Shown in pieces: positions 1 through 21,058 of a stretch of 64,000 nucleotides of DNA. How positions within the stretch are numbered: the first letter of the stretch is position 1; every line of letters begins with the position of its first letter. The stretch is from Candidatus Methylomirabilia bacterium (lineage in GTDB: Bacteria > Methylomirabilota > Methylomirabilia > Rokubacteriales > CSP1-6). Under the pieces are notes generated by a model that ran no database searches, was not told the DNA's origin, and saw nothing but the letters and a program-made list of their open reading frames with translations. The stretch is taken from NCBI GenBank assembly GCA_046758385.1, contig JBHIAB010000001.1, positions 2,608-66,607 on the forward strand, in the 5' to 3' direction. The translations under genes and the position numbers were made by a program.

Positions 1-881
1 GAGCCCGGGATGGTGGTGATCCGGTGGCCGAGAAGCCCGCCCGTGCAGGATTCGGCGAGGCCGAGCGTCAGGTGCCGCTGGGTGAGGAGCCGTCCGACCA
101 CCGCCTCCAGGTTTTCCCACTCGCGGCCGTAGCAATCGGCGCCCAGCGCCGCAGTGATCTCAGCCTCAGCCTCAGTTAGGGCCGCCTCCACGACGGATAG
201 CGAGGGGCCGCGTGCCCGAAGCCGGACCCAGACCTCACCCCCGACCGGCAGGCAATCAACGGCCACCGGGGCCTCGGGGCCGAGCCAGCCGCCGAGGCGC
301 TCCTCCACGGCGGCAAGATCGCACCCCACAGTCCGGAGCGCCCGAGCGAGCGTAACTCCCTTGTCGCCGAAGTGCTCGCGGGCGAACGGAACGAGGTGGA
401 ACCGCACGAGATCGGCCAGGGCCCCAGAACGTGGCGGGAGCACGGCCACGGCAGACTCACGAGCCCCGAGCACCCAGCCGGGCTCACCGTCTTCCACGGG
501 CCAGAGGGTGGCGCCTTGAGGGACCAGCGCTAGCCGGTCGAGCCGCCTGGGCCGCGGCCGATCCTGCCGGGCGTAGGCTGCCTCCAGCGCGGCAAGGAAC
601 CGTTCGTTGAGAACCAGGCGGGTTCCGGTAACGCGCGCGAGCACCCGGCGGACTACCTCGCCGGTTGAGTCGCCGCTAGCGCTCAGGATCACCACCAGCC
701 CGTAGCCCTCGGTCCCCGAGCGAAGCGCAGCCTCCAGGGCTGCCTCCTCGGCCTCCACCACGCCTCGAGACGCCACCGGAATCCCCTCGGCAGAGAGCGC
801 CAGAGCGACCCGATGCCCAGCCTCGTCCAAGGGCGCAATGACGGAGCCTGGGCTCACGGTGAGGATGAGGCTCCCGGTCAT
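1..881 (-). CDS. cinA: CinA-family protein (competence/damage-inducible protein A-like, PncC-type C-terminal domain); 3' end runs off the window start
   Basis: Not in ORF track (no stop inside window). Manual minus-strand translation from ATG 881..879 gives MTGSLILTVSPGSVIAPLDEAGHRVALALSAEGIPV... and reaches position 1 as ...LTLGLAESCTGGLLGHRITTIPGS. LAESCTGG is the CinA C-terminal domain hallmark. ATGA overlap with pgpA stop. Confidence 0.55.
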   Translation of the reverse strand, partial: MTGSLILTVSPGSVIAPLDEAGHRVALALSAEGIPVASRGVVEAEEAALEAALRSGTEGYGLVVILSASGDSTGEVVRRVLARVTGTRLVLNERFLAALEAAYARQDRPRPRRLDRLALVPQGATLWPVEDGEPGWVLGARESAVAVLPPRSGALADLVRFHLVPFAREHFGDKGVTLARALRTVGCDLAAVEERLGGWLGPEAPVAVDCLPVGGEVWVRLRARGPSLSVVEAALTEAEAEITAALGADCYGREWENLEAVVGRLLTQRHLTLGLAESCTGGLLGHRITTIPG

Positions 882-1399
882 GCGCTCCCCCCGACCAGCG
901 CGCGGAGCCCCCAGAGCAGCGCCAGGGTGTAGGCGCCGGCGATGAGATCGTCGAGCATGATACCAAGCCCCCCAGGCAACGACTCGCTCCGGCTGGCTGG
1001 AAACGGCTTCAGGATATCCAGGAGCCTGAAGAGGACGAAGGCCGACAGGAACAGGACGAGCTCACGTGGGAGCGCGATCACGGAGAGAAACATGCCGGCA
1101 ACCTCATCGACCACCACCAGGTTCGGATCCTTCCGGCCGAGCAGCCGCTCGGCGCGGCCCGAGGCCCACCCACCCAAGATGGTCAAGACGAGGAGAGCCA
1201 GAGCAAGCCCGAGTGGCGAGAACGGGACGATCCACAGGATCGCCAGAGCCAGGAGGCTTCCGGCGGTGCCCGGCACGACGGGCACATACCCCACGCCGCC
1301 CGCAGTGGCGATGAAGAGCGCCACCCGGTCTAGTGCCGTTCCAACTATTTGTGACGACTTTCGCGCTGCGCGCAGTCGCGATGGTTGTCGTAAACGCAA
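878..1399 (-). CDS. pgpA: phosphatidylglycerophosphatase A
   Basis: 173 aa; GGVGYVPVVPGTAGSL motif and multi-TM profile typical of PgpA. Confidence 0.7.
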   Translation of the reverse strand: MRLRQPSRLRAARKSSQIVGTALDRVALFIATAGGVGYVPVVPGTAGSLLALAILWIVPFSPLGLALALLVLTILGGWASGRAERLLGRKDPNLVVVDEVAGMFLSVIALPRELVLFLSAFVLFRLLDILKPFPASRSESLPGGLGIMLDDLIAGAYTLALLWGLRALVGGSA

Positions 1400-1434
1400 G
1401 CAGGTAACAGTCGGCCCAACAAGTTGGAACGGCG

Positions 1435-2781
1435 CTAGGAGGCCAATCGCTCAGCTCCGCCCCGAGATTCCGCCACACCGACGAGCTCGTATCCCTCCAC
1501 CTCCACGATCCTGATGCGCGCGAACCTGCCGGGGACCAGGTGCTGATCGCGAAGGTAGACGATCCCGTCTATCTCAGGTGCCTGGCCGGTCGTGCGCCCC
1601 TCCCAGGAAAAGGCCGGATCCTCGCTCGGTCCATCCACCAGCACGGTCTGAACGCTTCCGACGAGTGCCTGCTGCCGCTCCCACAGGATCCGGTCCTGGT
1701 ATTCCTGGACGAGGTGGGCTCGCTCAGCTATCACCTCGGGCGCCACCTGGTCGGCGATCCCGGCGGCAGGCGTCCCTTCTTCCGCGGAGTAGCTGAAGAC
1801 CCCGAGCCGGTCGAAGCGGACCCCCTCGATGAACTCCAGCAGATTCTGAAACGCTTCCTCGCTCTCCCCCGGGAACCCCACCAGCACCGTGGTCCGAAGT
1901 GTGACCCCGACAATGGCTTCGCGAACAGCCTGGACGAGCTCCCGCATGCGCCGAGCCGTGACGCCGCGGCGCATGGCGCTGAGGATCCCATCGTCGGCGT
2001 GCTGGATCGGCATGTCCACGTAGGGGACAAGCCGCGCTTGCCGCCACTTGGCCATGAGCCGATCGTTGATGTGAGCGGGGTGGAGATACATGGGGCGAAT
2101 CCATGCAATCGGTGTGTCCGAGAGCGCCAGCAGCAGATCTCCGATGTCCCCGTTGGCGGGGAGATCCTTGCCATAGGCGAGAGTGTCCTGGGACACCAGG
2201 ATCGCTTCCTGAACTCCTCGCCGCGCCAGCCCCTCCACCTCGTCCACGATGTCCGCCAGCGGGCGGCTCCGATGGCGTCCGCGAAACTGCGGGATCGCGC
2301 AGAACGCGCATTCCATGTCGCACCCTTCGGCAATCTTCACGTAGGCGTACGGGCCCGGCTGGCTGAGAAGACGCGGGGTCTGGGCGTCGTAGAGATAGCC
2401 TGGCGGGGCGTTGGTGGCCCAGTCCTGACGGCCCGCCTCCTGCCGAACCAGATCCACGATCCGCTCGAGCCCGGCGGTGCCCAAGATCCCGTCCACTTCA
2501 GGAATCTCCTCGAGGATCTCTCGCCCGTAGCGTTGCGGGAGGCAGCCGGTCACGATGAGCGAGCGCGCGCGGCCTCGGCCCTTGAGCCGGGCCAGCTCCA
2601 GGATGGTGCCGACCGACTCCTCCCGCGCGCGGTCAATGAAGGCGCAGGTGTTGACGATAAGGCAATCGGCCTCCGTCGCTCGGGCGACGGCGGCGAAGCC
2701 TGCCCGGTTCAGCATTCCGAGCATCAGCTCAGAATCGACTTGGTTCTTGGGACAACCGAGGGTGGTGAGGTGAATCTTCAT
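1435..2781 (-). CDS. rimO: ribosomal protein S12 methylthiotransferase RimO (radical SAM, MTTase N domain + TRAM)
   Basis: 448 aa. N-term KIHLTTLGCPKNQVDSE matches RimO LGCPKNxVDSE. Radical-SAM CxxxCxxC (CAFCAI). C-terminal TRAM-like segment (EGRTTGQAPEIDGIVY). Confidence 0.7.
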   Translation of the reverse strand: MKIHLTTLGCPKNQVDSELMLGMLNRAGFAAVARATEADCLIVNTCAFIDRAREESVGTILELARLKGRGRARSLIVTGCLPQRYGREILEEIPEVDGILGTAGLERIVDLVRQEAGRQDWATNAPPGYLYDAQTPRLLSQPGPYAYVKIAEGCDMECAFCAIPQFRGRHRSRPLADIVDEVEGLARRGVQEAILVSQDTLAYGKDLPANGDIGDLLLALSDTPIAWIRPMYLHPAHINDRLMAKWRQARLVPYVDMPIQHADDGILSAMRRGVTARRMRELVQAVREAIVGVTLRTTVLVGFPGESEEAFQNLLEFIEGVRFDRLGVFSYSAEEGTPAAGIADQVAPEVIAERAHLVQEYQDRILWERQQALVGSVQTVLVDGPSEDPAFSWEGRTTGQAPEIDGIVYLRDQHLVPGRFARIRIVEVEGYELVGVAESRGGAERLAS

Positions 2782-3063
2782 GGCGTCGAACGCCCTCAGC
2801 GGATGAGGACTGCCACGGGCTTCCCCCTGTCAATCACGACGACCCGCTCGCCCTTCCTGATCAGCGCCAGGTAGTGGGTGAGGCGGTTTTTTCAGCTCCC
2901 GAACCCCGATGATACGCATGTGGCCATTATAGCCACATGACCTTTACTATCAAGGCACCCGCTAAACAGGTTAGCCCGGAGTGCTGGTCGACGTTCCACC
3001 GCTCTGGGAGGCAGGCGAGTCTCCTCGGAGGCGTGAGGCGACTGTGCTGTGTCTGATGACTGT

Positions 3064-3828
3064 CTACTGGGCCATGAATCCCCCGTCGACGATCATCTCT
3101 GCTCCGGTCATGAACGACGACTCGTCGGAGGCCAGAAAGAGGGAGGCATACGCGATCTCGCGGGGATGGGCGATGCGGCCCAGGGGAATGGCAGCCTTGA
3201 ACTCCTCCCGGAGCGCTCGGGTGAGGTAGGGGGCCTGCATGGGCGTATCAACGATGCCGGGGTGGATGATGTTCGACCGGATGTTGTCCTTGGCGAACTG
3301 GATCGCGAGTGACTTGTTCAGGGAGATCAACGCGCCCTTGGCGGCGGTGTAGGCGTCCTGAGCCCGGGTGAAGCCGGCCAGGGCCGAGACCGATCCGACG
3401 AGGATGATGGAGCCCCCGCCGGCCTTCTTGAGGTGAGGGATCCCGTACTTGGTCACCCAGAACGCGGACTTCAGGTTGATGCCCATCACCCGGTCCCAGG
3501 CCGCCTCGTCGGTTTCGAGAACTGAGCGGTCGCGGTCTTTCCAGAGCACGCCGGCATTGTTGTAGAGAACATGGAGGGATCGAAAGGCTTGCACGCCTTC
3601 CTCGACCATCCGCTTGACGTCCTCCTCCACTGCCACATCTCCGACCGCGGCCACCGCCTCGCCGCCCGCCCGCTTCACCAGCTCCACGGTCTCATTGGCC
3701 GCGTCCCGGTTGATGTCAGCCACCACCATCCGCGCCCCGTGCTCGGCGAAGAGGAGCGAGGCTTCACGCCCCATTCCCATCCCCGAGCCCGTGATCAGCG
3801 CCACTCTACCCTGAAGCCTTGCCATCAC
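3064..3828 (-). CDS. SDR-family NAD(P)-dependent oxidoreductase
   Basis: 254 aa. TGSGMGMG glycine-rich dinucleotide motif, NNAG, catalytic YxxxK (YTAAK). Confidence 0.75.
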   Translation of the reverse strand: MMARLQGRVALITGSGMGMGREASLLFAEHGARMVVADINRDAANETVELVKRAGGEAVAAVGDVAVEEDVKRMVEEGVQAFRSLHVLYNNAGVLWKDRDRSVLETDEAAWDRVMGINLKSAFWVTKYGIPHLKKAGGGSIILVGSVSALAGFTRAQDAYTAAKGALISLNKSLAIQFAKDNIRSNIIHPGIVDTPMQAPYLTRALREEFKAAIPLGRIAHPREIAYASLFLASDESSFMTGAEMIVDGGFMAQ

Positions 3829-3887
3829 ACCTCTGCGGAGCGACCCGGCGCATCAGTAAGCTCCTTAAATTCGCTCGAAGTTCCGAA

Positions 3888-4217
3888 TCAGCGCTTGTAG
3901 GCGTTCACCGTGGGTGCGTTGAAGTACGCGAACTCGCGTCCCATGGCCACCTGACCCGCGAGCCACTGCTGATGGTGATGGAGCACCCCTGCTGGGCGGA
4001 GCACCCAGCGCGGCGCCTCCTCGATGGGATCTCCCTCCTCGGTGTAGACGTCGCAGAAGACAAGGGCAGTCTTGGGGAGCCAGGGAATCAGGCGGAGCGT
4101 CGAGAGGTCGGGTGAAATCCGCTTGGAACTCGCCGCTCCGAACACACTCCTTGTTGAACGCCCCGAGAGTATGGGCGTGGCTTGAGAACGACAGACCACA
4201 GGATTTTTGGCTGGCAT
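3888..4217 (-). pseudogene. glutamine synthetase remnant (N-terminal beta-grasp domain only, ~109 aa)
   Basis: FGAASSKRISPDLSTLRLIPWLPKTALVFCDVYTEEGDPIEEAPRWVLRPA...GREFAYF matches the GS N-domain pattern (FDGSSI..SDM.L.PD...DPW...lvfCDV...PR.iL; GpEpEFFlF). It ends with NAYKR (cf. GS NSYKRL) then stop. Far too short for a functional GS (~450-470 aa). Confidence 0.4.
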
Positions 4218-4261
4218 GACACAACGAAGTGTACCAGAAGTGCCGCACTTCCAACGAGCCG

Positions 4262-4759
4262 CTAGGTCGAGCGGTAGTTGCCGAACTGGAGCGCGATCCC
4301 CAGGTCCCTCTCCCGAAGCTTGGCAATGACGGCCTGAAGGTCGTCCCGGCTCTTGGCCGTGACGCGCACCTGATCCTGCTGGATCTGAGCCTGCACCCTG
4401 AGCTTCGTATCCTTGATGAGCTTGACGATCTCCCTGGCCTTCTCCCCCGGAATGCCCTGCTGCAGGCCGATCCTCTGGCGGAGGGCCCCGCCAGCCGCGG
4501 CTTCCACTGCTCCGTAGTCCAGGGCCTTGAGCGGGACACCCCGGCGGTGAAGCCGGGACTGGAGGATGTCCACCACGGCCCTGAGCTTCATGTCGTCGTC
4601 GGCCAACACGGTGAGGGCAGTCTTCTCAACCGTGACCTGGCAGCGTGAGCCTTTGAGATCGTAGCGCTGCTGGATTTCCTTGGTGGTCTGGTTGACCGCG
4701 TTGGTCACTTCCTGCATCTCCACCTTGCAGTACACGTCGAAGGAGTTCTCGGCTGCCAC
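4262..4759 (-). CDS. yajQ: YajQ-family cyclic-di-GMP-binding protein (UPF0234)
   Basis: 165 aa. [31 protein letters not shown] matches the YajQ N-terminus. GTG start. Confidence 0.75.
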
Positions 4760-4761
4760 GC

Positions 4762-4908
4762 TTACTTCACACCAAATAACTTCTGATCACGCGAATCAAG
4801 CATGATCTGTTCGATTACGTCCGGCTTCAACGCCTTTCGCTCAATCTTGTTGCGGATCCTATCGCGATACACCTCCAGGATCCTGTCCTCGTCGAACTTG
4901 TTCCTCAT
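4762..4908 (-). CDS. hypothetical small protein (48 aa), first gene of lower-GC island
   Basis: Manual translation [48 protein letters not shown]. No strong RBS. Below ORF-track length cutoff. Confidence 0.2.
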
Positions 4909-5020
4909 CCGCAAAATGGACGCAAGAGTACGCGAAACTGAAACCCGGTACCGCTACGTCCTTTGACCCTTGTACAGACTGAAAAGGTACACCACGTCTT
5001 CGTCTCTGATCGGATCAGCC

Positions 5021-5257
5021 TTAAGGTATCGGTACGAAAAGGGTCCCCTCCTCGTCTGAAGAGTGTCGGTACCGCCAAACGGTCTTTCTTGGACGTATTT
5101 CGGGAGTCGGGATCTGGCCGAGCCAGGCCGTCGCCGAGTGTTCGCTCGGATATCTCTGGACCGACACGCCAAGAACCTTCAACTTTGGACAGGCAGACAT
5201 CCTCCCATATATGAACGCTTTCACGTCCTCCTCGCTCATACTGACGAGTCGACTCAT
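5021..5257 (-). CDS. hypothetical protein (low-GC island)
   Basis: 78-aa ORF immediately downstream of 5262..5483 on the same strand. Competing ORFs on the other strand. No recognisable domain. Confidence 0.2.
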   Translation of the reverse strand: MSRLVSMSEEDVKAFIYGRMSACPKLKVLGVSVQRYPSEHSATAWLGQIPTPEIRPRKTVWRYRHSSDEEGTLFVPIP

Positions 5258-5261
5258 TGCT

Positions 5262-5483
5262 TCACTTCTCTCTCAAGCGCCTTTGGAACAGCCGAATAAG
5301 CTCCTCAGCACGCCGAATGCTTTCCCTAATAATACTCTCGAAGTTCCTAGGATCATACGGGGTCTGGGGGCTTGGTACGGCGTACGGGGAATAGTCAGCT
5401 TCGTCCCTGAGATTGCGTAGCTCTTTCAGCGCATTCCCTGCCCCATGTTCTGCTCGTACTAGCTGGTCTATCTCCCTGGTCAA
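5262..5483 (-). CDS. hypothetical protein (low-GC island)
   Basis: 73-aa ORF, charged/helical (…RRAEELIRLFQRRLREK). No recognisable domain. Confidence 0.25.
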   Translation of the reverse strand: MTREIDQLVRAEHGAGNALKELRNLRDEADYSPYAVPSPQTPYDPRNFESIIRESIRRAEELIRLFQRRLREK

Positions 5484-5597
5484 CGCGCCGTGATTATCCT
5501 GATCCTAGCGCTTGATAGTGGGCTATTTTGAATCACTTGTGCCATAATACTGGCACGGCGCTATATTTAGGAGCCCCGTAGACGCATCACTTTCCAG

Positions 5598-5626
5598 TTG
5601 ACGTGACCTGATGCGTCCTCTACACT
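5598..5626 (+). promoter_or_regulatory. sigma-70-like promoter (TTGACG-17-TACACT) flanked by paired palindromes, upstream of 5652 gene
   Basis: -35 TTGACG 5598-5603, 17-nt spacer, -10 TACACT 5621-5626. RBS AAGGAGG 5635-5641, 10 nt before ATG 5652. Inverted repeats GACGCATCA(5581-5589)/TGATGCGTC(5609-5617) and CGCATCA(5627-5633)/TGATGCG(5642-5648). Confidence 0.4.
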
Positions 5627-5651
5627 CGCATCATAAGGAGGTGATGCGAGC

Positions 5652-6077
5652 ATGGTTAGGGCGACAGAAGGGGAGCGAGAAATCCTGCGCCAAGCCGCTG
5701 AGGGCGCGGCGGCCATCTTGCCCAAGCTAGAGCAGGATCGGGCCGATCTCGATGACCGGATCGCCTCTCTCAGGGCCGCGATAGCGGCTTGGGAGGCTAT
5801 CTCGGGGAAACGACCGAGGAAGTCGCCTACCCCTGCCTCGGCTGAATCAGCTGAAGCGATACCCTCTCATCCGATCAAGCGCGGACAGGTTGCCCAGCAC
5901 ATTGACGCCATCCTAAAAGCGGGTGGTGACTACGACGAACCGGACCTGAGAAAAGCGATCTTTGACAGGTTCAATGTGGTCTATGGGCGCCCCACGATCT
6001 ACTCGGCATTGCGTCGAGGCCGCAAGATCGGGAGATATGAACAAAAAGAGAAGCGCTGGAGGATGAAGGTTGCGTGA
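5652..6077 (+). CDS. hypothetical protein (141 aa), island-borne
   Basis: Strong RBS and promoter upstream. N-terminal coiled-coil-like segment; C-terminal basic region. No recognisable domain. Confidence 0.5.
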   Translation: MVRATEGEREILRQAAEGAAAILPKLEQDRADLDDRIASLRAAIAAWEAISGKRPRKSPTPASAESAEAIPSHPIKRGQVAQHIDAILKAGGDYDEPDLRKAIFDRFNVVYGRPTIYSALRRGRKIGRYEQKEKRWRMKVA

Positions 6078-6120
6078 ACAACAAGAGGCCGTGATCGGCT
6101 TTTCCAGATCACGGCCCCCG

Positions 6121-6207
6121 TGCCCCCGTAGCTCAGCAGCAGGCTCAGCCATAGAGCACCCGCCTACTGAGCGGAAGGTCGCGCGTTCGAGGCCCGCCGG
6201 GGGCACC
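6121..6207 (+). tRNA. tRNA-like element (probable pseudo-tRNA on a tRNA-Arg(ACG)-like scaffold; anticodon loop CUACUGA = ACU; aberrant 19-nt D-loop; encoded CCA)
   Basis: Acceptor stem GCCCCCG/CGGGGGC, discriminator A + CCA. T-arm GCGCG-TTCGAGG-CCCGC. AGGTC variable loop. Anticodon stem CCCGC/GCGGA. The D-loop carries a ~10-12 nt internal duplication (GCTCAGCAG|GCTCAGCC). Confidence 0.4.
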
Positions 6208-6354
6208 AATTTCAACGGGGTATCCGGTGCGTCAACACCGAACACCCCCAACCCCGACACACCCCGCAGAGAGGAGTCGGGATTGGGGCCGCTAAGCCTC
6301 ACTTTTTTATCACTCTTGCGTGGGTGCTTGTCAAGGGTAAAGGCAAGGCCCACC

Positions 6355-7167
6355 ATGAACGTCCTGAACCCCGAAAGGAAGCTGGCTATTCTCTCCGCAT
6401 TGGTAGAAGGCAACTCCATGCGCTCTATTTCCCGCATGACCGGTGTCCACAAAACAACCATCTTGCGCTTGCTCAAGGAAGTGGGCGATAACTGTGTCAG
6501 GATTCTCGATGAGCGGATGCGCAGCCTGACCTGCCGCGTCATCGAGGGTGACGAGGTCTGGAGTTTCGTCAAAAAGAAGCAGCGGCGGCTGACCGCCGAG
6601 GAAAAGCTGAATCCCGAGTTTGGCGACCAGTACGCCTATATCGCCTTGGACCCGGACACGAAGCTCGTCCCGGTGTTCGTCGTCGGCAAGCGGGACGGTG
6701 CGACCACGTTCCGCTTCGTCCAGCAGCTTCGGCATCGGCTCGCCAATCGCATTCAGATAAGTACCGACGCCTTCCGCCCCTATGTGGAGGCCGTGGAGAG
6801 CGCCTTTGGGGCGGACATCGAATACGCGCAGTTGACCAAGGTCTACGAGGCCGAGAACCCAGGCCCTGGGTGCTATAGTCCGCCCAAAGTCACTGGCGTC
6901 CAGGTTACAGAGATCGCCGGCCGACCGGAGCCGAAGAAGACCTGCACGTCCTACGTCGAGCGGAACAACCTCACCATCCGCATGCAGCTTCGGCGCTTCA
7001 CGCGACTGACCAATGGGTTTAGCAAGAAGCTGGAGAACCTGAAGGCAGCTCTCGCTATTCACTTCGCTCATTACAACTTCTGCCGGATTCACGGCTCGCT
7101 CCGCGTGACCCCGGCGATGCCGCCAGGAGTCACGGACCGCATCTGGAAGTTGGAGGAACTGCTATGA
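6355..7167 (+). CDS. IS1-family transposase, single fused ORF (InsA-like HTH + InsB-like catalytic domain)
   Basis: 270 aa. HTH [23 protein letters not shown] resembles IS1 InsA. Catalytic part aligns to E. coli IS1 InsB blocks ([13 protein letters not shown] ~ DEQWGYVGAKSRQRW; YAYIALD...[11 protein letters not shown] ~ [48 protein letters not shown] ~ [33 protein letters not shown] ~ GHYLNIKHY). Terminal inverted repeats not located. Confidence 0.7.
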   Translation: [270 protein letters not shown]

Positions 7168-8228
7168 GGGCGCAGAAGGAGCGCAAGCTTGACGGCACTC
7201 CCAAGCTGGGCGAGAAACTCCGTATCGGCGGCACGATTGTTCATTTTGGTCGTGCTGAGCGCTTGTATCCGCACTGGCCGATCCCGACCTGTATCATTGT
7301 CGATGGACCATACGGGATCAGCGGATTCCCCGGTGACCCGCCCAGTCATCGGGACTTGCCCGACTGGTATGCCCCTCATGTCGCCGCGTGGTCACGGTAC
7401 TCCATGCCACAAACGACCTTATGGTTCTGGGGCACGGAAATCGGCTGGGCGGTTGTTCATCCGCTGCTAGATCGACATGGCTGGGAATATCGCTCGTGCC
7501 ATATCTGGGACAAAGGACTGACCCACATCGCCGGGAACGCCAACTCCCTCACGCTTCGTAAGTTCCCCGTCGTGACCGAAGTCTGCGTCCAATACGTCAA
7601 GGCGGCCCGCTTCTCCGTGAACGGTCGACAGCTGTCAATGCAAGAGTGGCTTCGATACGAATGGGAAAGATCCGGCTTGCCATTGACGCTCACTAATAAA
7701 GCGTGTGGAGTCTTAAACGCGGCGACCCGGAAATACTTCACCAAGTGCCACCTTTGGTACTATCCCCCCGTCGATGCGTTTGTTCGCTTCGTTAAATACG
7801 CCAACAAGCATGGCCGGCCTGAAGGGCGCCCCTACTTCAGCGTGGATGGGACGCGGCCCCTATCGGGCGAAGAATGGGCGAAGATGCGCGCAAAGTTTCA
7901 CTGCGAGGTCGGCGTCAACAATATCTGGCGCGAATCACCTGTCCGTGGCGAAGAGCGGATTAATGGATTCAGGTCGAGCATGCAGTGGAAGTATGCGAGT
8001 CTCCACGGGAGCCAAAAGCCGTTGCGCCTGATCGAGTTAATCGTGCGGGCCAGCACCGATCCCGGAGACGCAGTGTGGGACCCGTTCGGCGGCCTTTGTA
8101 CGACGGCCGTTGCTTGTCTCAGAGCGGGCCGCCGTTGCTTCAGCGCCGAGATCGTTCCCGAGTTCTACCTCGCCGCCAAAGAAAGGGTGGCCGCGTATGG
8201 CAAGGCCGTCAAAACCAGGACGCGTTGA
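7164..8228 (+). CDS. DNA methyltransferase, beta-class N6-adenine/N4-cytosine (PF01555-type; motif IV before motif I)
   Basis: 354 aa. Motif IV variant IIVDGPYG near the N-terminus. Motif I region ELIVRASTDPGDAVWDPFGGLCTTAVACLRAGRRCFSAEI near the C-terminus. Start overlaps transposase stop (ctATGAgg). Confidence 0.7.
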   Translation: MRAQKERKLDGTPKLGEKLRIGGTIVHFGRAERLYPHWPIPTCIIVDGPYGISGFPGDPPSHRDLPDWYAPHVAAWSRYSMPQTTLWFWGTEIGWAVVHPLLDRHGWEYRSCHIWDKGLTHIAGNANSLTLRKFPVVTEVCVQYVKAARFSVNGRQLSMQEWLRYEWERSGLPLTLTNKACGVLNAATRKYFTKCHLWYYPPVDAFVRFVKYANKHGRPEGRPYFSVDGTRPLSGEEWAKMRAKFHCEVGVNNIWRESPVRGEERINGFRSSMQWKYASLHGSQKPLRLIELIVRASTDPGDAVWDPFGGLCTTAVACLRAGRRCFSAEIVPEFYLAAKERVAAYGKAVKTRTR

Positions 8229-8976
8229 GCCGACCAAGTGGGAACATTATGAGTTATGGAGGCGGGTAATCGAAGCCATCCATGCGCTGCCACTTCATTT
8301 CAAGTCAGCGACCGTCATAGAAGGGATGCTCGTCACGGACATATTCACCCTGAACGCTGCACTTGGAGCAACAATAGAAGAGCAGGTCGTGGCCACCCTC
8401 AATGCCCTGCGTCCAGTATGGGATCCGGACAAGAAACTTCAGACTTTTGGCTTCGTGAGGCAAACGCAGACGTTCCCTGATGTGCTGCTTAGAAGAAAGA
8501 CTGACGGGCAATAGATTCTGATGGGGATCGAACTTAAGGGCTGGTATATGCTCGCGAAGGAAGGCGAACCGAGCTTCAGATTCACGGTTAACGCGAACGC
8601 ATGCAATCCCTGGGATTTGATCGTCGTCGTTCCGTGGGTTCTCTCAAATGTTTTGTCCGGCTCGCCCGTCGTCCATCCGGTATTCATTGACCTTACCCGG
8701 TATACTGCTGAGCAGCGGAACTATTATTGGCAATACGAGCGCGAAGCTAAGGGCGACCTCGGCGTAATCCTTGCGGAAGGTGCCACCACCTATCCCGTCA
8801 AGAGCGACAAGATTTCCGACAAGGCCAAGCATGATCCGAGCAGCAACTTTGGCCGACTGGCTCGGTACGGCATCATGGAAGCGTTCGTCAAAGCCACGAT
8901 GAATACGCCTGTTCGAGGCTTGCCAGCCCATCAATGGTTGGCATTTTTCAAGCGCGGGATCAAAGAACCCGATTGA
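8197..8976 (+). pseudogene. PD-(D/E)xK restriction-endonuclease-like gene interrupted by an in-frame TAG (8512-8514); fragments 8197..8514 and 8521..8976
   Basis: Both ORFs are in the same frame. Upstream fragment ends ...QTFPDVLLRRKTDGQ*. Downstream fragment begins (IL)MGIELKGWYM..., so the stop falls exactly between the PD and ExK catalytic elements (PD-x15-ELK). The gene sits directly downstream of the MTase. Confidence 0.5.
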
Positions 8977-9001
8977 AAATAGCCCAGTACCTAGCGCTTT
9001 A

Positions 9002-9295
9002 TCATAAAGACTGTCGCCCGCGCGGCGTGGTAAGCTCCATAGTATGCACGGGATACGGCGCCGCGCCGCGCCGCACCAACGGGTCCTTGCTCTTAGCGAG
9101 GACTCTCGCGGCTTTGATGAAACCCGTGGCCAGGGCGAATCTGTCCCTGACTATGCTGGTAACTGCGCGCTCTAACCACCTTGCATCCAACGTCTCCACA
9201 TCCGTCAGCGAACGCAGCAGGGCACACTGGGACGACGAGAGTTTCTCGAGCAGCTTCTTGGAAGCGTCCGCCGGCATGCCGCGGCCGATTGTCAC
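9002..9295 (-). CDS. hypothetical protein (97 aa), lower-GC, overlaps lolA stop
   Basis: ORF only; no recognisable domain. 4-bp overlap with lolA suggests co-transcription. Confidence 0.3.
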   Translation of the reverse strand: MTIGRGMPADASKKLLEKLSSSQCALLRSLTDVETLDARWLERAVTSIVRDRFALATGFIKAARVLAKSKDPLVRRGAAPYPVHTMELTTPRGRQSL

Positions 9296-9966
9296 CGACC
9301 CGGATCGAGGGGGACCACGGCCACACCTGGCGGCGGTGTGAAGACGAAGAGCTCATCACCCAGTGTCGGGTTGACCCCGATCTCGGTGAACTGCATGGTC
9401 ACGGTGTTGTCGAACTGGTCGTAGAGCACGGCCTTCCGCACCAGGTACTGCTCTCGGTCCACGGAGAGGATGAGGCGCGTGAGCACCGCGGTGGGCACCT
9501 TCGGCCTCAGGTCGATCAGCGGGTTCCCCGCCTGGTCCACCTTGAGCGGGTTCAAGAAGCGGACCGTGAACTCCTCCCGGACGCGCCCCAGTCCCGCCAG
9601 GAAACTTCCCGCGGGACCCGCGAGGGCCCGCGGCGCATCGCCTACGTTCACCTGATTCAGCTCCGGCGTGTACACCCAGATCGAGGTCCCGTCGGAGACA
9701 ATCTGCTGAGGCGAGGGAGTCTGGTACTCCCACCGCATCCTCCCCGGCTTCTTCAAATAGACGACCCCCTCGGCCTCGATGGTCTGCCCGAAGCTCTTGT
9801 TGAAGGCACTCTGGACGAACTCGGCGCGAAGGGTAGTGATCCGCGCATAGGTCGACTCGAGCCTGGCCACCACCCCATCGAGCGTGAGCGCCGAGGCGAG
9901 GCTGGGGAAAAAGATCAGGACGAGACCAATGACAGCTCGGCCAAGAGGTGCACTGGCTCTCCTCAT
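9292..9966 (-). CDS. lolA: outer-membrane lipoprotein carrier protein LolA
   Basis: 224 aa. Signal peptide, then LolA-like core (KKPGRMRWEYQTPSPQQIVSDGTSIWVYTPELNQV). Confidence 0.7.
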   Translation of the reverse strand: MRRASAPLGRAVIGLVLIFFPSLASALTLDGVVARLESTYARITTLRAEFVQSAFNKSFGQTIEAEGVVYLKKPGRMRWEYQTPSPQQIVSDGTSIWVYTPELNQVNVGDAPRALAGPAGSFLAGLGRVREEFTVRFLNPLKVDQAGNPLIDLRPKVPTAVLTRLILSVDREQYLVRKAVLYDQFDNTVTMQFTEIGVNPTLGDELFVFTPPPGVAVVPLDPGR

Positions 9967-9970
9967 ATGC

Positions 9971-12130
9971 CTAGAGACTGCGGCCCTGCCCGAGCCTGTT
10001 GAGATAGTCGACGCCGACCAGCACCTCGCGGGGCTTGGCGCCGTCGCCGGGGCCGATGATGCGGTCCTGCTCCATCATGTCGATAAAGCGCGCCGCCTTG
10101 GGGTAGCCCAGGCGCAGCCGGCGCTGGAGGAAGGAGATGGAGGCCTGCCGCTGCGCGATCACCAGCTGGACGGCATCCCAGTACATCTCGTCTCGCTCCG
10201 TGCCCTCCCCACCTCCGACCCTCCGCTCCTCGCGGCCAAGCTCAACCTCCTCGTACACCGCCGCCCCCTGCGTGCGGAGAAAGTCGCAGACCGACTGGAC
10301 TTCTTCCTCGGAGACCCAGGCGCCGTGGATCCGGAGCTGACGAGTGGCGCCGGGCGGCACGAAGATCATGTCGCCACGCCCCAGGAGCTGCTCGGCGCCG
10401 TTCGAGTCCAGGATGGTGCGAGAGTCCACCTTGGAGACCACCTGAAAGGCGATCCGCGCGGGGAAATTGGCCTTGATGAGGCCGGTGACCACATCGACGG
10501 ACGGCCGCTGGGTCGCGACGATCAAGTGGATTCCCACGGCCCGGGCGATCTGTGCCAGGCGCACCAGAGAGTGCTGCACCTCCCCCGCCGAGGCCATCAT
10601 GAGGTCTGCCAGCTCATCCACGACCACCACCCAATACGGAAGCCGCTCCGGCGGCTCGACCTCTCGGTTGTAGCTCTCGATGCCGCGGGCGCGACGCCCC
10701 GCCAGGAGGCCGTACCGCTCGTCCATCTTGGCCACGATCCAGCGAAGGCGCGCCGAGGCCTCCCGGGCGTCCGTGACCACCGGTGCCATCAGGTGGGGGG
10801 TCCCTTCGTAGACGCCAAGCTCCAGCCGCTTGGGGTCGATCATCAAGAAGCGCACCTCAGCCGGCGTGGCCTTGAAGAGGATCGAGCAGATCATGGCGTT
10901 GATGCTCACCGACTTCCCCGTCCCGGTCGCGCCGGCGATCAGGAGGTGCGGCATTGTCGTGAGGTCCGTCACGTACGGTTGCCCTGTGATGTCTTTCCCC
11001 AGACCCAACGGGAGCCTCCCTCTGGCCTCCACGAACTCGGTCGAGGTCATGACCTCTCGGAGGTAGACCGTGGCCGGCGCCGGGTTCGGAACCTCGACCC
11101 CCACCGTCCCGCGCCGCGGGATGGGCCCGACCACGCGCACGGCCGCAGCTTTCATCCCCAGAGCCAGGTCGTCGGCGAGGTTCACGACCTGGTTCACCTT
11201 GATCCCCGGGGCTGGCTCGAACTCATAGGCCGTGATGACAGGCCCGGGGTTCACCTGGACGATGCGCCCCTCCACGCCGAAGTCTTCGAGCTTCTTCGTG
11301 AGGACCTCGGCGTTCGCCTGTAGCTCCTCCCGGCTCCACTTGAGCTCGGTGAGGACCGGGGCCTTCAACAGCGCCACGGACGGGAGCTGAAAGGCGGATC
11401 CCTGCCCGTCGCCAAACTCGAACGTTTCCTTCCAGGTGAGCTCCCTAGCAGGCGCGGCCCCGTCAGGTCTCACCGGTCCCGCTCCGAGGGCAGGAAGAGG
11501 CTCAGGGGAAGCTGCCGGCTCGGCGATCCGAGCCGGGGCGACAAGGGGGGGCTCCGTCGGGACCGCCTGAGACACTGCCCGGGGCGCTCTCTTTCCGAAC
11601 AGCCGGCCAAGCCTGGCCCTCAGGCTCCGGGAAAGGATCGCGTACGGAACCTGGGTCAAGCAGAGAAGCCCCACGGGGATCAGGGTCACCAGCAGCAAGA
11701 CCGTGCCGACCTCGCCCACCGTGCGGTCCAGAAGCCTCACCAGGCTCCAGCCCACTATGCCTCCGCCCAAGGCGGGAGACTCCTCAACGGCGGGGGCGGC
11801 CCACCCCATGAGCCCGGTGACGCTGGCGAGAAGGAGGACGAAGCCGACGATACCAGAAAGCCCGGTGGCCAGGCGCAGACGGAAGAACGCGGTCAGCCCG
11901 AAGTGGATCAGGCCCAGAGGGAATAGATAGCTGGCGTAGCCGAAGGCCCAGAAGAACGCCCAGCTCAGCCAGATCCCGACCATCCCGACCGGGCTCAACT
12001 GATCGGCTGGGGGAAGGGAGGGATCGAAGGTGGCCAGAGCGAACATCCAGAACCCGGCAAGGGCCAGGGCCAGGATTGCCTTCACCTCCTTCTGCCACCG
12101 GGGGGCTCGTTGTCCGCTCTTCTTCTTCAT
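9971..12130 (-). CDS. ftsK: DNA translocase FtsK/SpoIIIE
   Basis: 719 aa. N-terminal TM helices, Pro-rich linker, motor domain with Walker A GATGTGKS and Walker B VVVVDELADLM, C-terminal gamma winged-helix. Confidence 0.85.
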   Translation of the reverse strand: MKKKSGQRAPRWQKEVKAILALALAGFWMFALATFDPSLPPADQLSPVGMVGIWLSWAFFWAFGYASYLFPLGLIHFGLTAFFRLRLATGLSGIVGFVLLLASVTGLMGWAAPAVEESPALGGGIVGWSLVRLLDRTVGEVGTVLLLVTLIPVGLLCLTQVPYAILSRSLRARLGRLFGKRAPRAVSQAVPTEPPLVAPARIAEPAASPEPLPALGAGPVRPDGAAPARELTWKETFEFGDGQGSAFQLPSVALLKAPVLTELKWSREELQANAEVLTKKLEDFGVEGRIVQVNPGPVITAYEFEPAPGIKVNQVVNLADDLALGMKAAAVRVVGPIPRRGTVGVEVPNPAPATVYLREVMTSTEFVEARGRLPLGLGKDITGQPYVTDLTTMPHLLIAGATGTGKSVSINAMICSILFKATPAEVRFLMIDPKRLELGVYEGTPHLMAPVVTDAREASARLRWIVAKMDERYGLLAGRRARGIESYNREVEPPERLPYWVVVVDELADLMMASAGEVQHSLVRLAQIARAVGIHLIVATQRPSVDVVTGLIKANFPARIAFQVVSKVDSRTILDSNGAEQLLGRGDMIFVPPGATRQLRIHGAWVSEEEVQSVCDFLRTQGAAVYEEVELGREERRVGGGEGTERDEMYWDAVQLVIAQRQASISFLQRRLRLGYPKAARFIDMMEQDRIIGPGDGAKPREVLVGVDYLNRLGQGRSL

Positions 12131-15994: not shown

Positions 15995-16625
15995 CCCGCT
16001 GCTGCAGGGCCCGGAGGTCGGCCAGCAGCGCCTGGTGCACTTCCTTCACCTGGCGTGCGGTCGCCTCGCGGGAGCCGGAGTTGTCGATGACGTAGTGGGC
16101 CTGCTTCACCTTCTCGGCGAGCGGCATCTGGCTCCGGATCCGGCTCGCCACCTCGTCCTCAGAAACACCGTCTCTCAGGGTCAGCCGTTTCACCTGGGTC
16201 GCCTCGTCACTTACCACGACCACGAGCCGGTCCGTGTTCCTGACACCGCTCGTCTCGACCAGCAACGCCGCATCGAAGATTGCGAGCCCCTCGAACCCTT
16301 CCGCGATCAGCCCCTCCAGAATACCGGCGTAGCGGGCGCGGATCTCGGGGTGGGTGATCTCTTCCAGGCGCTTGCGCTTCCCCGGATCGTCAAACACCAG
16401 GGCGCCCAGCTTCTTCCGGTCGACCAGGCCGTCGGGTTGAAGGATCCCGCGCCCAAACTCGGCCACGATCCGCTCGTACGCAGCCTCGCCCGGCTCCATC
16501 ACTTCCCGCGCCAAGAGGTCGGCATCGATGATCAGACAGCCCAGGTCTCGGAAGAGCCGCGAGACCGTGCTCTTCCCGGTCGCGATCCCCCCCGTCAGGC
16601 CCACCAGAAGGAACTTGCGCTTCAT
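15987..16625 (-). CDS. coaE: dephospho-CoA kinase
   Basis: 212 aa. GLTGGIATGKST P-loop, CoaE-like layout. Confidence 0.8.
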   Translation of the reverse strand: MKRKFLLVGLTGGIATGKSTVSRLFRDLGCLIIDADLLAREVMEPGEAAYERIVAEFGRGILQPDGLVDRKKLGALVFDDPGKRKRLEEITHPEIRARYAGILEGLIAEGFEGLAIFDAALLVETSGVRNTDRLVVVVSDEATQVKRLTLRDGVSEDEVASRIRSQMPLAEKVKQAHYVIDNSGSREATARQVKEVHQALLADLRALQQRDA

Positions 16626-16644
16626 CGGGGCGCCAGAGTTGACC

Positions 16645-17082
16645 TCAATGCTGGGCGTGAGGCTTGCCCTCCTTTCCCTTGGACCGCAAAGACTTCAGCA
16701 TGGGACCAATGTCTCTGAGGAACGCTTCACAGCCTTGAATCTGTTTCTCCACGTACGCCTTGTCGAACTCTGCAAAGGAGACGTAGTCACCTTTCAGGCG
16801 GTCCCGAAAGAGACGGTTATAAAGTTGACCGTGATGTCTGGGCAGTCGGCCCGCTTTGATTATTTCCCGGTTGAAGGCTGCACGAACCCCACTGTGCTTC
16901 TTGAACTTGTGCCCCTCTTCAAGGAGGAGGGCGCTCACAGCATAGAACAAGGCATAGTACGCGCGGTTCACGGCGAGCGCATGATCCCCGGCCGCCAACT
17001 CGCGTCGCGCGGCATTCAGGCTCTCCGCGGCCCTGCTCCACCAATAACGGATCGCCTGCGTTTTGGGGCTTTGGGAGCTCAT
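16645..17082 (-). CDS. HEPN-domain protein (toxin-like partner of MNT)
   Basis: 145 aa. YYALFYAVSALL...KKHSGVRAAF HEPN-type helical core. 4-bp overlap with upstream MNT gene. Confidence 0.65.
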   Translation of the reverse strand: MSSQSPKTQAIRYWWSRAAESLNAARRELAAGDHALAVNRAYYALFYAVSALLLEEGHKFKKHSGVRAAFNREIIKAGRLPRHHGQLYNRLFRDRLKGDYVSFAEFDKAYVEKQIQGCEAFLRDIGPMLKSLRSKGKEGKPHAQH

Positions 17083-17429
17083 AAACGAATGCCCCTCTTT
17101 TCAATTTCCTCGTGAATGGGCATGGCGGAGACCATGCCGTGATCCCAGGTTTGGCGATCGATGATCAGTTCGCTCAGGTTCGCGTCATACTCAAGATTAA
17201 TCTCGAAGATCACCTGCGAGATCTGATCTTCTGTTTGGACGTCAAGACGATCTTTCAGCACGACCAGGATGTCCACATCGGACTCATCATCAGGCCTCCC
17301 CCAGGCAAGGGACCCAAATAGGACGATCCGATCCACCTCAAACCGGGCCTTCAGCCGGTCACGCGCAGCTTCGAGCGCCGCCCGAAGCCCCACATCTAGC
17401 TTCAGGTCCCTGAGACCCTTCCTGGTCAT
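17079..17429 (-). CDS. minimal nucleotidyltransferase (MNT, Pol-beta superfamily; antitoxin-like)
   Basis: 116 aa. LFGSLAWGRPDDESDVDILVV = GS-x9-13-D.D motif. Confidence 0.7.
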   Translation of the reverse strand: MTRKGLRDLKLDVGLRAALEAARDRLKARFEVDRIVLFGSLAWGRPDDESDVDILVVLKDRLDVQTEDQISQVIFEINLEYDANLSELIIDRQTWDHGMVSAMPIHEEIEKRGIRL

Positions 17430-17469
17430 GTTCCCTCCCCTGCGCTATCACGATCACTCTTACTAGGCT

Positions 17470-18366
17470 CTACGCTCTTCCTTCCTGGTCCATCATCCGT
17501 CTCCTTCTTCGTTCTTCCATTTCTTCCACAATATGTTTACCTCTTGCCTCATCTGCCGGGGAGATCGGAAGAAGACTGAGTGTCAGCGCAGCCCGAGCCA
17601 CCTCCGTCGCTAGTTGTCCTCGGCTGAATTCTGAGAGCACACCATTCTCAGTTACCCAGTCAGCCAAGGCCGCACAACAGTTCCATCTACCCAATGATCC
17701 TTCCGTGCAGCGCCTTACAAGCCACAGTACTACGTCGATGATTTGTAGTCCCACCAATAACTTCGATGTCACCTCGATAGGACACCGGTACGTGTCTACT
17801 TCCTGCATATCAGTCATCCATGAAAACGGGCTGGTCGAAAACGAAAACCTTGTATGCACCCCATACATTTCCTCCATGGCCCTGGCGAACTGACTCTGTT
17901 CATCGTGGATGAATCGGGTTACTTGAAGGCCGGTACCCTCGAGCAGTGTGTGAATACCGCCAACTAACAGACTAAACGCTACTGCATTTGGTGCATCGAG
18001 CTCGCTTCTCCTAAACTTCAACTCCGGGAACTCTTCGGTATGGTCCAAGGCCCAGTCCATCGCGTCCAGTAAAAGCTCTTGGACTCTGCGATCCTTAACT
18101 TTGTTCTGGATATTCCATCGCAGCCGCCTCAGAACACGACGAAACCCTTCAACATCCCCTCTTTCGTAAACCGACCAAAACTCTTCCTGACTCCGCTGGC
18201 TCAGGTTCTCTACGATGACGTGCGCCAAAGATAGCCGGAAAAACCGATTACCGTAGTGCACAGGAGAGACAGCTTGGTTGATCCCACTGTCAAGCAAAGT
18301 GTCTACAATTAAATTGTTCCCGGTATTGCCAGATTCATCGGTATACGCAAGGATTGACTCGCTCAT
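17470..18366 (-). CDS. DUF3800-like protein (uncharacterised, predicted RNase-H-like fold family)
   Basis: 298 aa in a distinctly lower-GC ~1 kb patch. N-terminal AYTDESGNTG (cf. DUF3800 Y.DESG). Later LVGLQIIDVVLWLV (cf. DUF3800 llQlADl). Confidence 0.45.
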   Translation of the reverse strand: MSESILAYTDESGNTGNNLIVDTLLDSGINQAVSPVHYGNRFFRLSLAHVIVENLSQRSQEEFWSVYERGDVEGFRRVLRRLRWNIQNKVKDRRVQELLLDAMDWALDHTEEFPELKFRRSELDAPNAVAFSLLVGGIHTLLEGTGLQVTRFIHDEQSQFARAMEEMYGVHTRFSFSTSPFSWMTDMQEVDTYRCPIEVTSKLLVGLQIIDVVLWLVRRCTEGSLGRWNCCAALADWVTENGVLSEFSRGQLATEVARAALTLSLLPISPADEARGKHIVEEMEERRRRRMMDQEGRA

Positions 18367-18475
18367 GCGTTAGCGCTTCCGATCTGGAAACTCTCCTGAA
18401 TTCTGCACGTCGGCATCCAGAAACCCAATCTACGTACTCCCGTGAATCTTTGCGGACAGCCGAGACATGGAAATG

Positions 18476-21058
18476 TCAAACCTCGGACCAGTCGCGCCCG
18501 GTCTTGATGTCCACGGTCAAGGGGACGGAGAGGGTCATGGCGGATTCCATGGTCTTGCGGGCCAGGGACTCGAGCGTGGGGAGCTCATCCTCGGGGACTT
18601 CGAAGAGCAACTCATCGTGCACCTGGAGCAGCATGCGGCTTCGGAGGCCCCGTGAGCCGAGCGCCTCGGCCATGCGCACCATGGCGATCTTGATCAGGTC
18701 GGAGGCGGTGCCCTGGATCGGGGCATTCATGGCCATCCGCTCGGCCGCGCCACGCGCGTTGGGATTGCCGCTGTTCAGCTCGGGGAGGTAGCGGCGCCGC
18801 CCGAGCAGCGTCGTCACGTAGCCCTTCTCTCGCGCCTCGGTCAGGGTCCTGTCGAGATACGCCTTCACCTTCGGGTGCCGCGTGAAGTAGTCGTCCAGAT
18901 ACTTCTGGGCGTTCTTTTGATCGACTCCTGCGGCCTGAGAGAGGCCAAAAGCCGAGATGCCGTAAATGATGCCAAACCCGATCCCCTTCGCCACGCGCCG
19001 CATCTCCGGCGTGACCGCCTCCGGAGTAGCCCCGAACACCTCCCACGCCGTGCGGGCGTGGATGTCCTCCCCTCGGCGGAAGGCCCCGATCAGTGATTCC
19101 TCGCCAGAGCAGTGAGCCAGGACCCTCAAGTCGATCTGGGAGTAGTCGGCGGCGAGGAAGCGCTGGCCGGCTTCAGGGACGAAGGCCTGGCGGATCCGGC
19201 GTCCCAGGCCGGTCCTCACCGGGATGTTCTGGACGTTCGGTTCCGACGACGACAATCTGCCCGTTGCGGTGACGAGCTGGTTGAAGGAAGTGTGAATGCG
19301 GCCGGTCCGCGGGTGGATCAGCCCGGGCAAGGCATCCGCATAGGTGGACTTGAGCTTGGCCAGGGTGCGGTGCTCGAGGAGTTTGGCCGGGAGGGGGTGG
19401 CCCAGGGCCAGCTGCTCGAGCACCTCCGCGTCGGTGGAGTAGCCGGTCTTGGTGCGCTTGACCGGTGGCAGCTTGAGCCTCTCGAAGAGCACCCGAGCGA
19501 GCTGCCTCGGGGAGTTGATATTGAACGGCTCGCCGGCCAAGGTGTGAATCTCTCGGGTGAGCCTGTCCAGATCACGCTCGAGCTCCTTGGCAAAGCCCTG
19601 GAGGCGCTCGGGATCCACCCGGATGCCGTCGAGCTCCATGCGGGCCAGGACCGGCACGAGCGGCCGTTCCACCTCCTCGTACAGTCCGAGGAGCCCGTGC
19701 TCCGCCAGGAGTGCCGAGGCCTCTGACCAGTAGCGCCAGACCCAGCGTGCCCGCTCGCCCGCTCGGGCCGCCACCTCCTCGGCGGGCGCGCCCGCAGACG
19801 GAGCAGCCACGGGCTCCTCCCCGAACTGCTCGAGACAGACCTCCTCGAGCGGGTAGCGAGCACGCGCAGAGTTGACCAGATACGCGGCCACGGCCGAATC
19901 CTCGAAGCGCGGCAGGGGGAGCCCGCGTGCCAGGATCCACTGAAGCGTGAGCTTCAGGTCGTGACCGATGAGCGGGTGCCCGCCCGGATCCGGGAGGGCC
20001 TCGCACACTGGGAGGAAGGCTCGGCCGATGCCCGGGTGAAAGAGGCCCAGGCCGAGAATCACCGGATCCGGCGCCCCTCCCTGCCCCACCCACTCCACCC
20101 CGATGGGGTCTCCGGGGGGGAGCTGGCGGAGGCACTCAACCAGCGCTTCAGGAGAGAGGAGGATTCGCACGGCCTCGGCCGGCAGCTCGATTCGCGGGGC
20201 GGGGAGCTGGCGGAGAAGGCTTGAGAACTCCAGCTCAGTCCAGATGGCGCGGAGCCGGACCACGTCAGGTTCCTGGCGCTTGAAAGCCTCCATCTCTAAG
20301 TCGAGCGGGACCCGCCGACTGATGGTGGCCAGTTCCCGTGAGAGGCTCACCTGCTTTCGGTTGGCGGCCAGAGCCTCCCGAAGCTTGCCGCCGCCCACCA
20401 GGAGGAGGTTCTCGTAGACCCGCTCGATGGTCCCAAACTGCCCCAGGAGCTTTCGGGCAGTGGTCTCGCCGATCCCGGGCACGCCCGGAATGTTGTCGAT
20501 TGCATCCCCCATCAGCGCCAGGAGATCCGGGATCCCGGCCGGCGGTACGCCCCAGCGCTCATGGACCTTGGCCTCGTCGTAGACGACCCGCTCGCCCGTG
20601 CGCCCGACCACCGAGAGGACGCGGACCTTGGGTCCGACGAGCTGGAGCATGTCCTTGTCCGCCGTGACCAGGACCAGCTCGACCGGGAGGTTTCGGACTC
20701 GATCCACGACAGTCCCCAGGATGTCGTCAGCCTCATAGCCGGCCACTTCGAGGACCGGAATCCTGAGCGCCTCGATCACGGCCTTCACGTGCGGGATCTG
20801 GACAGCCAGATCTGCCGGCATCCCCGGGCGGGTCTCCTTGTAGCGCTCGAAGGCTTCGTGCCTGAAGGTCGGGCCCGGCGCGTCCCACGCGACGCCGATG
20901 TACTCCGGCTGCTCTTCCCTGAGGAGCTTCCAGAGCATGGTGCCGATGCCGAAGACGGCGTGGGTGGGGACCCCGCGAGACGTGGAGAGGTAGCCGAGGG
21001 CGTGGTAGGCGCGGTAGAGGTGAGAGGGCCCGTCGATCAGAAAGAAGCGCGGTGTCAT
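18476..21058 (-). CDS. polA: DNA polymerase I
   Basis: Real start MTPRFFLIDGPSHLYRAYHA (5'-3' exo domain) at 21058, not at 21628. C-terminal palm motifs ...LLQVHDELLFEV. 861 aa. ATGA overlap with glnE stop. Confidence 0.9.
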   Translation of the reverse strand: MTPRFFLIDGPSHLYRAYHALGYLSTSRGVPTHAVFGIGTMLWKLLREEQPEYIGVAWDAPGPTFRHEAFERYKETRPGMPADLAVQIPHVKAVIEALRIPVLEVAGYEADDILGTVVDRVRNLPVELVLVTADKDMLQLVGPKVRVLSVVGRTGERVVYDEAKVHERWGVPPAGIPDLLALMGDAIDNIPGVPGIGETTARKLLGQFGTIERVYENLLLVGGGKLREALAANRKQVSLSRELATISRRVPLDLEMEAFKRQEPDVVRLRAIWTELEFSSLLRQLPAPRIELPAEAVRILLSPEALVECLRQLPPGDPIGVEWVGQGGAPDPVILGLGLFHPGIGRAFLPVCEALPDPGGHPLIGHDLKLTLQWILARGLPLPRFEDSAVAAYLVNSARARYPLEEVCLEQFGEEPVAAPSAGAPAEEVAARAGERARWVWRYWSEASALLAEHGLLGLYEEVERPLVPVLARMELDGIRVDPERLQGFAKELERDLDRLTREIHTLAGEPFNINSPRQLARVLFERLKLPPVKRTKTGYSTDAEVLEQLALGHPLPAKLLEHRTLAKLKSTYADALPGLIHPRTGRIHTSFNQLVTATGRLSSSEPNVQNIPVRTGLGRRIRQAFVPEAGQRFLAADYSQIDLRVLAHCSGEESLIGAFRRGEDIHARTAWEVFGATPEAVTPEMRRVAKGIGFGIIYGISAFGLSQAAGVDQKNAQKYLDDYFTRHPKVKAYLDRTLTEAREKGYVTTLLGRRRYLPELNSGNPNARGAAERMAMNAPIQGTASDLIKIAMVRMAEALGSRGLRSRMLLQVHDELLFEVPEDELPTLESLARKTMESAMTLSVPLTVDIKTGRDWSEV

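Follow-up and report, generated by a model that had tools for sequence, protein, structure and literature searches.

A probably recent amber mutation in the restriction endonuclease gene of a restriction-modification module carried by an IS1-like element in Candidatus Methylomirabilia

What does it mean when a gene resembling a restriction endonuclease is interrupted by an in-frame amber codon lying between the two elements of its catalytic core, directly beside a DNA methyltransferase gene that appears to be intact? The question is raised by a locus in contig JBHIAB010000001.1 of the Candidatus Methylomirabilia bacterium assembly GCA_046758385.1, of which 64,000 nt were analysed (this whole stretch is referred to as the window, and all coordinates are window positions unless another contig is named). 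The locus comprises a methyltransferase (MTase) gene, M, and a nuclease gene, R. Very probably, it carries a recent loss-of-function allele of R in a Type II restriction-modification (R-M) module in which M has been left intact. The features on which the argument depends are the following.

7164..8228, plus strand: M gene, beta-class N6A/N4C DNA methyltransferase, 354 aa, apparently intact (assigned by Pfam, PADLOC and PDB matches and by linkage)
8197..8976, plus strand: R gene, 259 codons, putative Type II PD-ExK restriction endonuclease, now a pseudogene through an internal TAG
8197..8511, plus strand: N-terminal fragment of R (105 aa), which includes Glu61 and Pro94-Asp95; translation from the native start should yield this part alone
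8512..8514, plus strand: premature amber codon TAG, ancestrally GAG (Glu106), in the hairpin turn that links the PD strand to the ExK strand
8521..8973, plus strand: C-terminal fragment of R, 151 aa, with Glu112-x-Lys114 and the remainder of the fold

According to the sequence and the list of open reading frames (ORFs), both parts of R lie in a single frame, which runs from ATG at 8197 through TAG at 8512-8514, ATT, CTG and ATG at 8521 to TGA at 8974-8976; the start of R overlaps M by 32 nt. The initial annotation had described two same-frame ORFs split by TAG-ATT-CTG, with the stop between the PD and ExK elements, and both statements hold, the peptide around the stop reading FPDVLLRRKTDGQ, stop, ILMGIELKGW. 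The spacing given there for the nuclease core, PD-x15-ExK, is correct if the stop is left uncounted, and becomes 16 residues, as in the homologs, when the stop position is counted. That this is one split gene and not two unrelated ORFs was likewise borne out. The fused 259-aa product has 2,568 protein matches at E <= 0.001, and nearly all of the best 120 are 255-285 aa long. Because it aligns end to end with proteins of approximately 260 aa (best E = 1.8e-147, 83% identity, 99% coverage), the two halves do not stand side by side by accident, and the alignments of homologs continue uninterrupted across the stop position. The ATG at 8521 is an ancestral internal Met/Leu codon and not a new start, the family consensus here being ILMGIELKGW. 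In a structure model, made from the 83%-identical homolog P0001 standing in for the intact protein described below, the strand after PD (97-101) and the ExK strand (108-118) are joined by a turn, and the stop position lies in this turn.

The origin of the stop can be followed in two Logan contigs from adjacent run accessions, L001 (SRR29324603) and L002 (SRR29324601), which were retrieved by exact look-up of the MTase and the C-terminal ORF. L001 is identical to window positions 6987-10411 and carries the split gene. L002 is identical to positions 6987-9708 (2,722 bp) but for G in place of T at 8512; its allele reads GAG (Glu), which leaves an uninterrupted 259-codon R gene that includes the same ATG at 8521. 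The M sequence is the same in both contigs. Across 80 genome loci of the family, the column occupied by the stop holds E in 29, D in 26 and other residues in the rest, and a stop in none of them. GAG is what both the family consensus and the closest homolog support, which makes TAG the derived state. In a second pair of contigs, which covers the left part of the locus, position 5572 is the one difference between L084 (SRR29324601) and the window (G vs A), and L085 (SRR29324603) is identical to the window. With single-nucleotide polymorphisms (SNPs) at both 8512 and 5572, the two samples therefore carry two haplotypes, with two differing sites in approximately 5.3 kb. As far as can be read from these sequences, the stop is a fresh point mutation, apparently very recent and still polymorphic.

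Three independent lines, including a PADLOC match and the linkage of M and R, identify the R protein as a probable Type II restriction enzyme, in agreement with the restriction-endonuclease-like character initially assigned to it. E61, P94-D95 and E112-x-K114 are invariant in 80/80 loci and in an alignment of 115 sequences, and the fold is of the restriction-endonuclease-like alpha/beta type. The PADLOC profile PDLC03583 (REase_II) gives a weak and partial match to R (E = 1.5e-6, residues 86-174), the matched region being the catalytic core that spans the stop. An MTase ortholog, 54-66% identical to that of the window, is found directly upstream of R and on the same strand in all 80 loci, which come from Dehalococcoidia, Gemmatimonadota, Latescibacterota, Acidobacteriota, Verrucomicrobiota, Planctomycetota, Proteobacteria, Nitrospirota and others. 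The M-R pair is also plasmid-borne, for example on a 12-kb Cupriavidus plasmid whose annotation gives a DNA methyltransferase as the upstream gene. Searches of Pfam, NCBIfam and PDB sequences with the fused R protein gave no significant match, and its homologs in the databases are all named 'hypothetical protein', as are those found by tblastn against plasmids. Structurally, R resembles the EcoRV-like branch of PD-(D/E)XK enzymes (SwaI, NlaIV, EcoRV, HincII), yet the identity of these to R is only 10-15%, and R has no sequence-level match to any solved structure or Pfam family. The intact R protein would represent a large family of restriction enzymes, unnamed in Pfam and NCBIfam and without a solved structure, which has more than 2,500 members from many phyla, plasmids included.

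Elsewhere in the family, nonsense-disabled R genes are found as well, in approximately 4% of the representative genomes.

L080 (Planctomycetaceae), position 6307: TAG at Arg99, also between PD and ExK, in an otherwise intact R homolog
L059 (Arenicellales), position 6013: TGA at residue 19 of an otherwise intact R homolog
L018 (Albidovulum), position 6049: TGA at Trp21 of an otherwise intact R homolog, with the MTase match broken in two pieces

As both the codons and the types of stop differ, the stops of the R family fit random loss of function and not recoding. Orphan MTases arise where an R-M system has lost its restriction enzyme (PMC9465063). The locus in the window, with its intact M beside a disabled R, is of this kind, as are those of L080, L059 and L018, but it represents the earliest stage, a single SNP, and not an old and heavily decayed remnant.

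The following course of events would account for the present state of the locus. M would protect the host copies of the recognition site, and intact R, a member of an EcoRV/SwaI-like structural branch, would cut unmethylated sites. A single G-to-T transversion at 8512 changed Glu106 (GAG) to amber (TAG), and translation from the native start would end after 105 residues. Such a product would keep the PD half of the active site but miss Glu112-x-Lys114, along with 60% of the fold on the C-terminal side. From a fragment without ExK and most of the fold we infer that restriction activity has been lost; M presumably continues to be active, and there may be a selective reason for the loss. An addictive R-M pair can decay without killing its host only if R goes before M, and this safe exit recurs in the R family.

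The assignment of M, described from the outset as a beta-class MTase directly upstream of R, rests on a match to Pfam PF01555 (N6_N4_Mtase, E = 1.3e-19), on PADLOC MTase_II and on the order of its motifs, with motif IV (DGPYG, residue 47) preceding motif I (DPFGG, residue 306) as is characteristic of the beta class. The CcrM, DpnA, MboIIA, PvuII and RsrI methylases are its relatives in PDB sequence searches and share with it the N6_N4_Mtase domain and the order of motifs. The classical beta-class enzymes have DPPY or SPPY as motif IV, whereas the MTase family of the window (7302-7316, residues 47-51) has DGPY in 69 of the 78 readable loci and DGAY in the other nine. Motif I starts DPFGG in the window and EPFGG in 79/79 homologs. 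An MTase gene of this family is itself disrupted in L070 (the Dehalococcoidia chromosome OZ240214.1), where an insertion of approximately 1.2 kb at 4283-5519 carries two ORFs (175 and 212 aa) that read as a putative transposase pair; the downstream R homolog reads through intact, so that M would have been lost with R retained, the opposite and supposedly lethal order.

Two explanations of the split gene had initially been put forward. Inactivation of R, leaving the MTase behind, is supported by the GAG allele of the sister sample, by the intact M and by the stops elsewhere in the R family, whereas nonsense suppression or regulated readthrough is not supported. The latter would have the amber codon decoded to some degree, by a suppressor tRNA or by programmed readthrough, with attenuated or regulated restriction as the result, and bacteria do show low-level natural readthrough of UAG. 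The stop is, however, unconserved, being absent at this column in 80/80 homologs and replaced by GAG in the sister sample, and the other stops of the R family are at different codons, some of them TGA. TAG is moreover a normal terminator of housekeeping genes: in a crude, composition-filtered gene set of the window it ends approximately 10 of 45 genes, including FtsK, YajQ, an SDR and a radical-SAM methylthiotransferase. As it ends ordinary genes of the window, TAG is probably not reassigned, and pyrrolysine or any other reassignment was rejected on this ground. ARAGORN detected no tRNA, hence no suppressor tRNA, within the 64 kb, and folding of 8470-8570 revealed no stimulatory RNA structure (z = -0.43 vs shuffles). 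Readthrough is for these reasons considered highly improbable. Also very unlikely is that selection has favoured the amber allele as an attenuated form of an R-M system borne by a transposon, with a residue of restriction or addiction activity through rare readthrough or through reinitiation at the ATG 6 nt past the stop; if it were so, the element could persist or move with less self-killing. Phase variation was ruled out, as the inactivated site has no repeat tract: no tandem repeats occur in 7000-9050, and the sole array (9058-9074) is outside the R gene.

Two points weigh against a recent loss of function. The window and L001 may derive from the same reads, the T at 8512 being known from assembled consensus, and the ATG lies only 6 nt past the stop, where some re-initiation may yield the C-terminal fragment. 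The first of these, together with the single base that separates the window from L002 and the fact that G-to-T is a typical signature of oxidative damage, would favour a sequencing or assembly artefact, with the gene really intact in the organism of the window. Such an error is very improbable, since T was called by two different assemblers (in the metagenome-assembled contig of the window and in Logan L001) for SRR29324603-type sequence, damage errors stay at a low allele fraction and do not reach the consensus, and the linked second SNP at 5572 also separates the samples, consistently with two real haplotypes. The second point, along with the predicted place of the break in a structurally tolerant hairpin turn between two strands, could speak for a split enzyme, in which termination at TAG and re-initiation at ATG 8521 give fragments of 105 and 151 aa that reassemble into an active nuclease. 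Against it, the ATG is the ancestral Met/Leu codon common to the intact allele and many homologs, no Shine-Dalgarno motif was seen upstream of it on reading the sequence, a two-gene arrangement occurs in 0/80 loci, and in L080, where a stop falls in this hairpin too, no ATG follows it. The event is, besides, a single SNP and not an evolved architecture, and a split enzyme appears extremely unlikely. It is also hard to credit that this PD-ExK nuclease serves some purpose besides restriction, in which case the stop would be irrelevant to any R-M system. Recent inactivation of R thus remains by far the most probable explanation.

M and R are the cargo of a mobile element, the parts of which are as follows.

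5514-8991: IS1-like element, 3,478 bp, comprising a 141-aa ORF, the transposase, M and R, and delimited by repeats and a target duplication
5506..5513, no strand: target-site duplication, left copy, TAGCGCTT
5514..5534, plus strand: left terminal inverted repeat, GATAGTGGGCTATTTTGAATC
5652..6077, plus strand: 141-aa ORF upstream of the transposase, inside the element (a gene call in Logan contigs L084 and L085)
6355..7167, plus strand: IS1-like DDE transposase, approximately 270 aa from the start MNVLNPERK; its stop overlaps the M start (ATGA)
8971..8991, minus strand: right terminal inverted repeat (reverse complement GGTACTGGGCTATTTTCAATC), matching the left one at 18/21 positions and holding the R stop codon
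8992..8999, no strand: target-site duplication, right copy, TAGCGCTT

The repeat finder reported a 28-nt inverted repeat (2 matches vs 0.04 expected), which resolves into terminal inverted repeats of 21 bp and a perfect 8-bp direct repeat flanking the element on each side. The ends fit the GGnnnTG pattern of IS1. The transposase appears to be related to the IS1 type, but its matches are below the curated thresholds, with 75.9 bits (E = 3.8e-21) against a cut-off of 100 for NCBIfam transpos_IS1 and 24.0 bits against 24.1 for Pfam DDE_Tnp_IS1. The 141-aa ORF has no Pfam match. Upstream of this ORF and a short way inward from the left repeat lies the SNP at 5572, 5 nt past a promoter-like -10 hexamer, TATATT (5562-5567).

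When metagenome contigs were scanned for the repeat core, 61 matches emerged, by rough estimate mostly at chance level, but three of them adjoin transposase homologs with 42-56% identity (L105, L133 and L093). L105 (Ga0187893_10036836, 405-4112) is a complete element of approximately 3.7 kb with the same repeat core, GGTAGTGGGCTATTTTGAATC, and a 9-bp duplication, GCGCGGGTG. Its transposase starts MNILKPEKK and is 56% identical to that of the window, whereas its cargo, five ORFs of 98-220 aa, is entirely different. The comparison points to an IS lineage that carries differing passenger genes from place to place. In Xanthomonas oryzae, a Type II R-M unit with inverted repeats and an 8-bp duplication has been described (Furuta et al., 2010; PMC2853133), and the window element similarly has R-M genes between inverted repeats with an 8-bp target duplication. 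So-called transporter ISs carry passenger genes beside the transposase, inside the repeats (PMC3129680), and in the window element, too, the passengers share their repeats with the transposase. Set against these transposon-like R-M units and transporter ISs, the element has its own IS1-like transposase, and the start of M overlaps the transposase stop. It is a further example of this known arrangement.

The palindrome within the target duplication, AGCGCT, was considered as a recognition site and rejected. In the host part of the window (1-4760 and 9292-64000) it is not depleted, with 31 observed against the 35.5 that a maximal-order Markov estimate predicts, and in the related element L105 the duplicated target is an unrelated sequence. 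Two other palindromes are rarer there than the same estimate predicts, CAGCTG (8 observed vs 24.2) and ATCGAT (8 vs 18.5), perhaps a trace of further R-M systems in this lineage.

The FtsK protein of the window is 100% identical to one from an NCBI metagenome-assembled genome of Candidatus Methylomirabilia. In the related genome GCA_030157145.1 the gene order is RNase J, FtsK, LolA, YajQ, radical-SAM methylthiotransferase and PgpA, with no insert and with YajQ starting 5 bp past LolA. In the window, LolA (9966-9292) and YajQ (4759-4262) are set apart by approximately 4.5 kb, and the G+C content of this insert is 0.53-0.62 vs 0.63-0.72 in the flanks. The insert (4760-9291) exceeds the IS1-like element itself, which may have landed in an older small island. 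Outside the element, the insert has two minus-strand ORFs, one of 73 aa (5262-5483) that matches HEPN weakly (E = 0.028) and one of 97 aa (9002-9295) without an assigned family. A second patch of low G+C, at 16500-18500 (0.51-0.58 vs approximately 0.65-0.70 around it), may be another acquired segment.

On its own, a nonsense-disabled R gene beside an intact methyltransferase is routine, being the ordinary bacterial route to disarming an R-M system. Here the loss appears to have been caught one mutation after the event, with both alleles present in sister metagenomes. The R-M pair as cargo of an autonomous IS1-like element with its target duplication intact is a clean further instance of the recognised association of R-M systems with transposons. 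The widespread M-R module, with a nuclease that has neither a Pfam or NCBIfam family nor a solved relative, is a candidate for a new specificity, and the pair of alleles would offer natural material for weighing what restriction costs and what it brings to a Methylomirabilia population that is uncultured.
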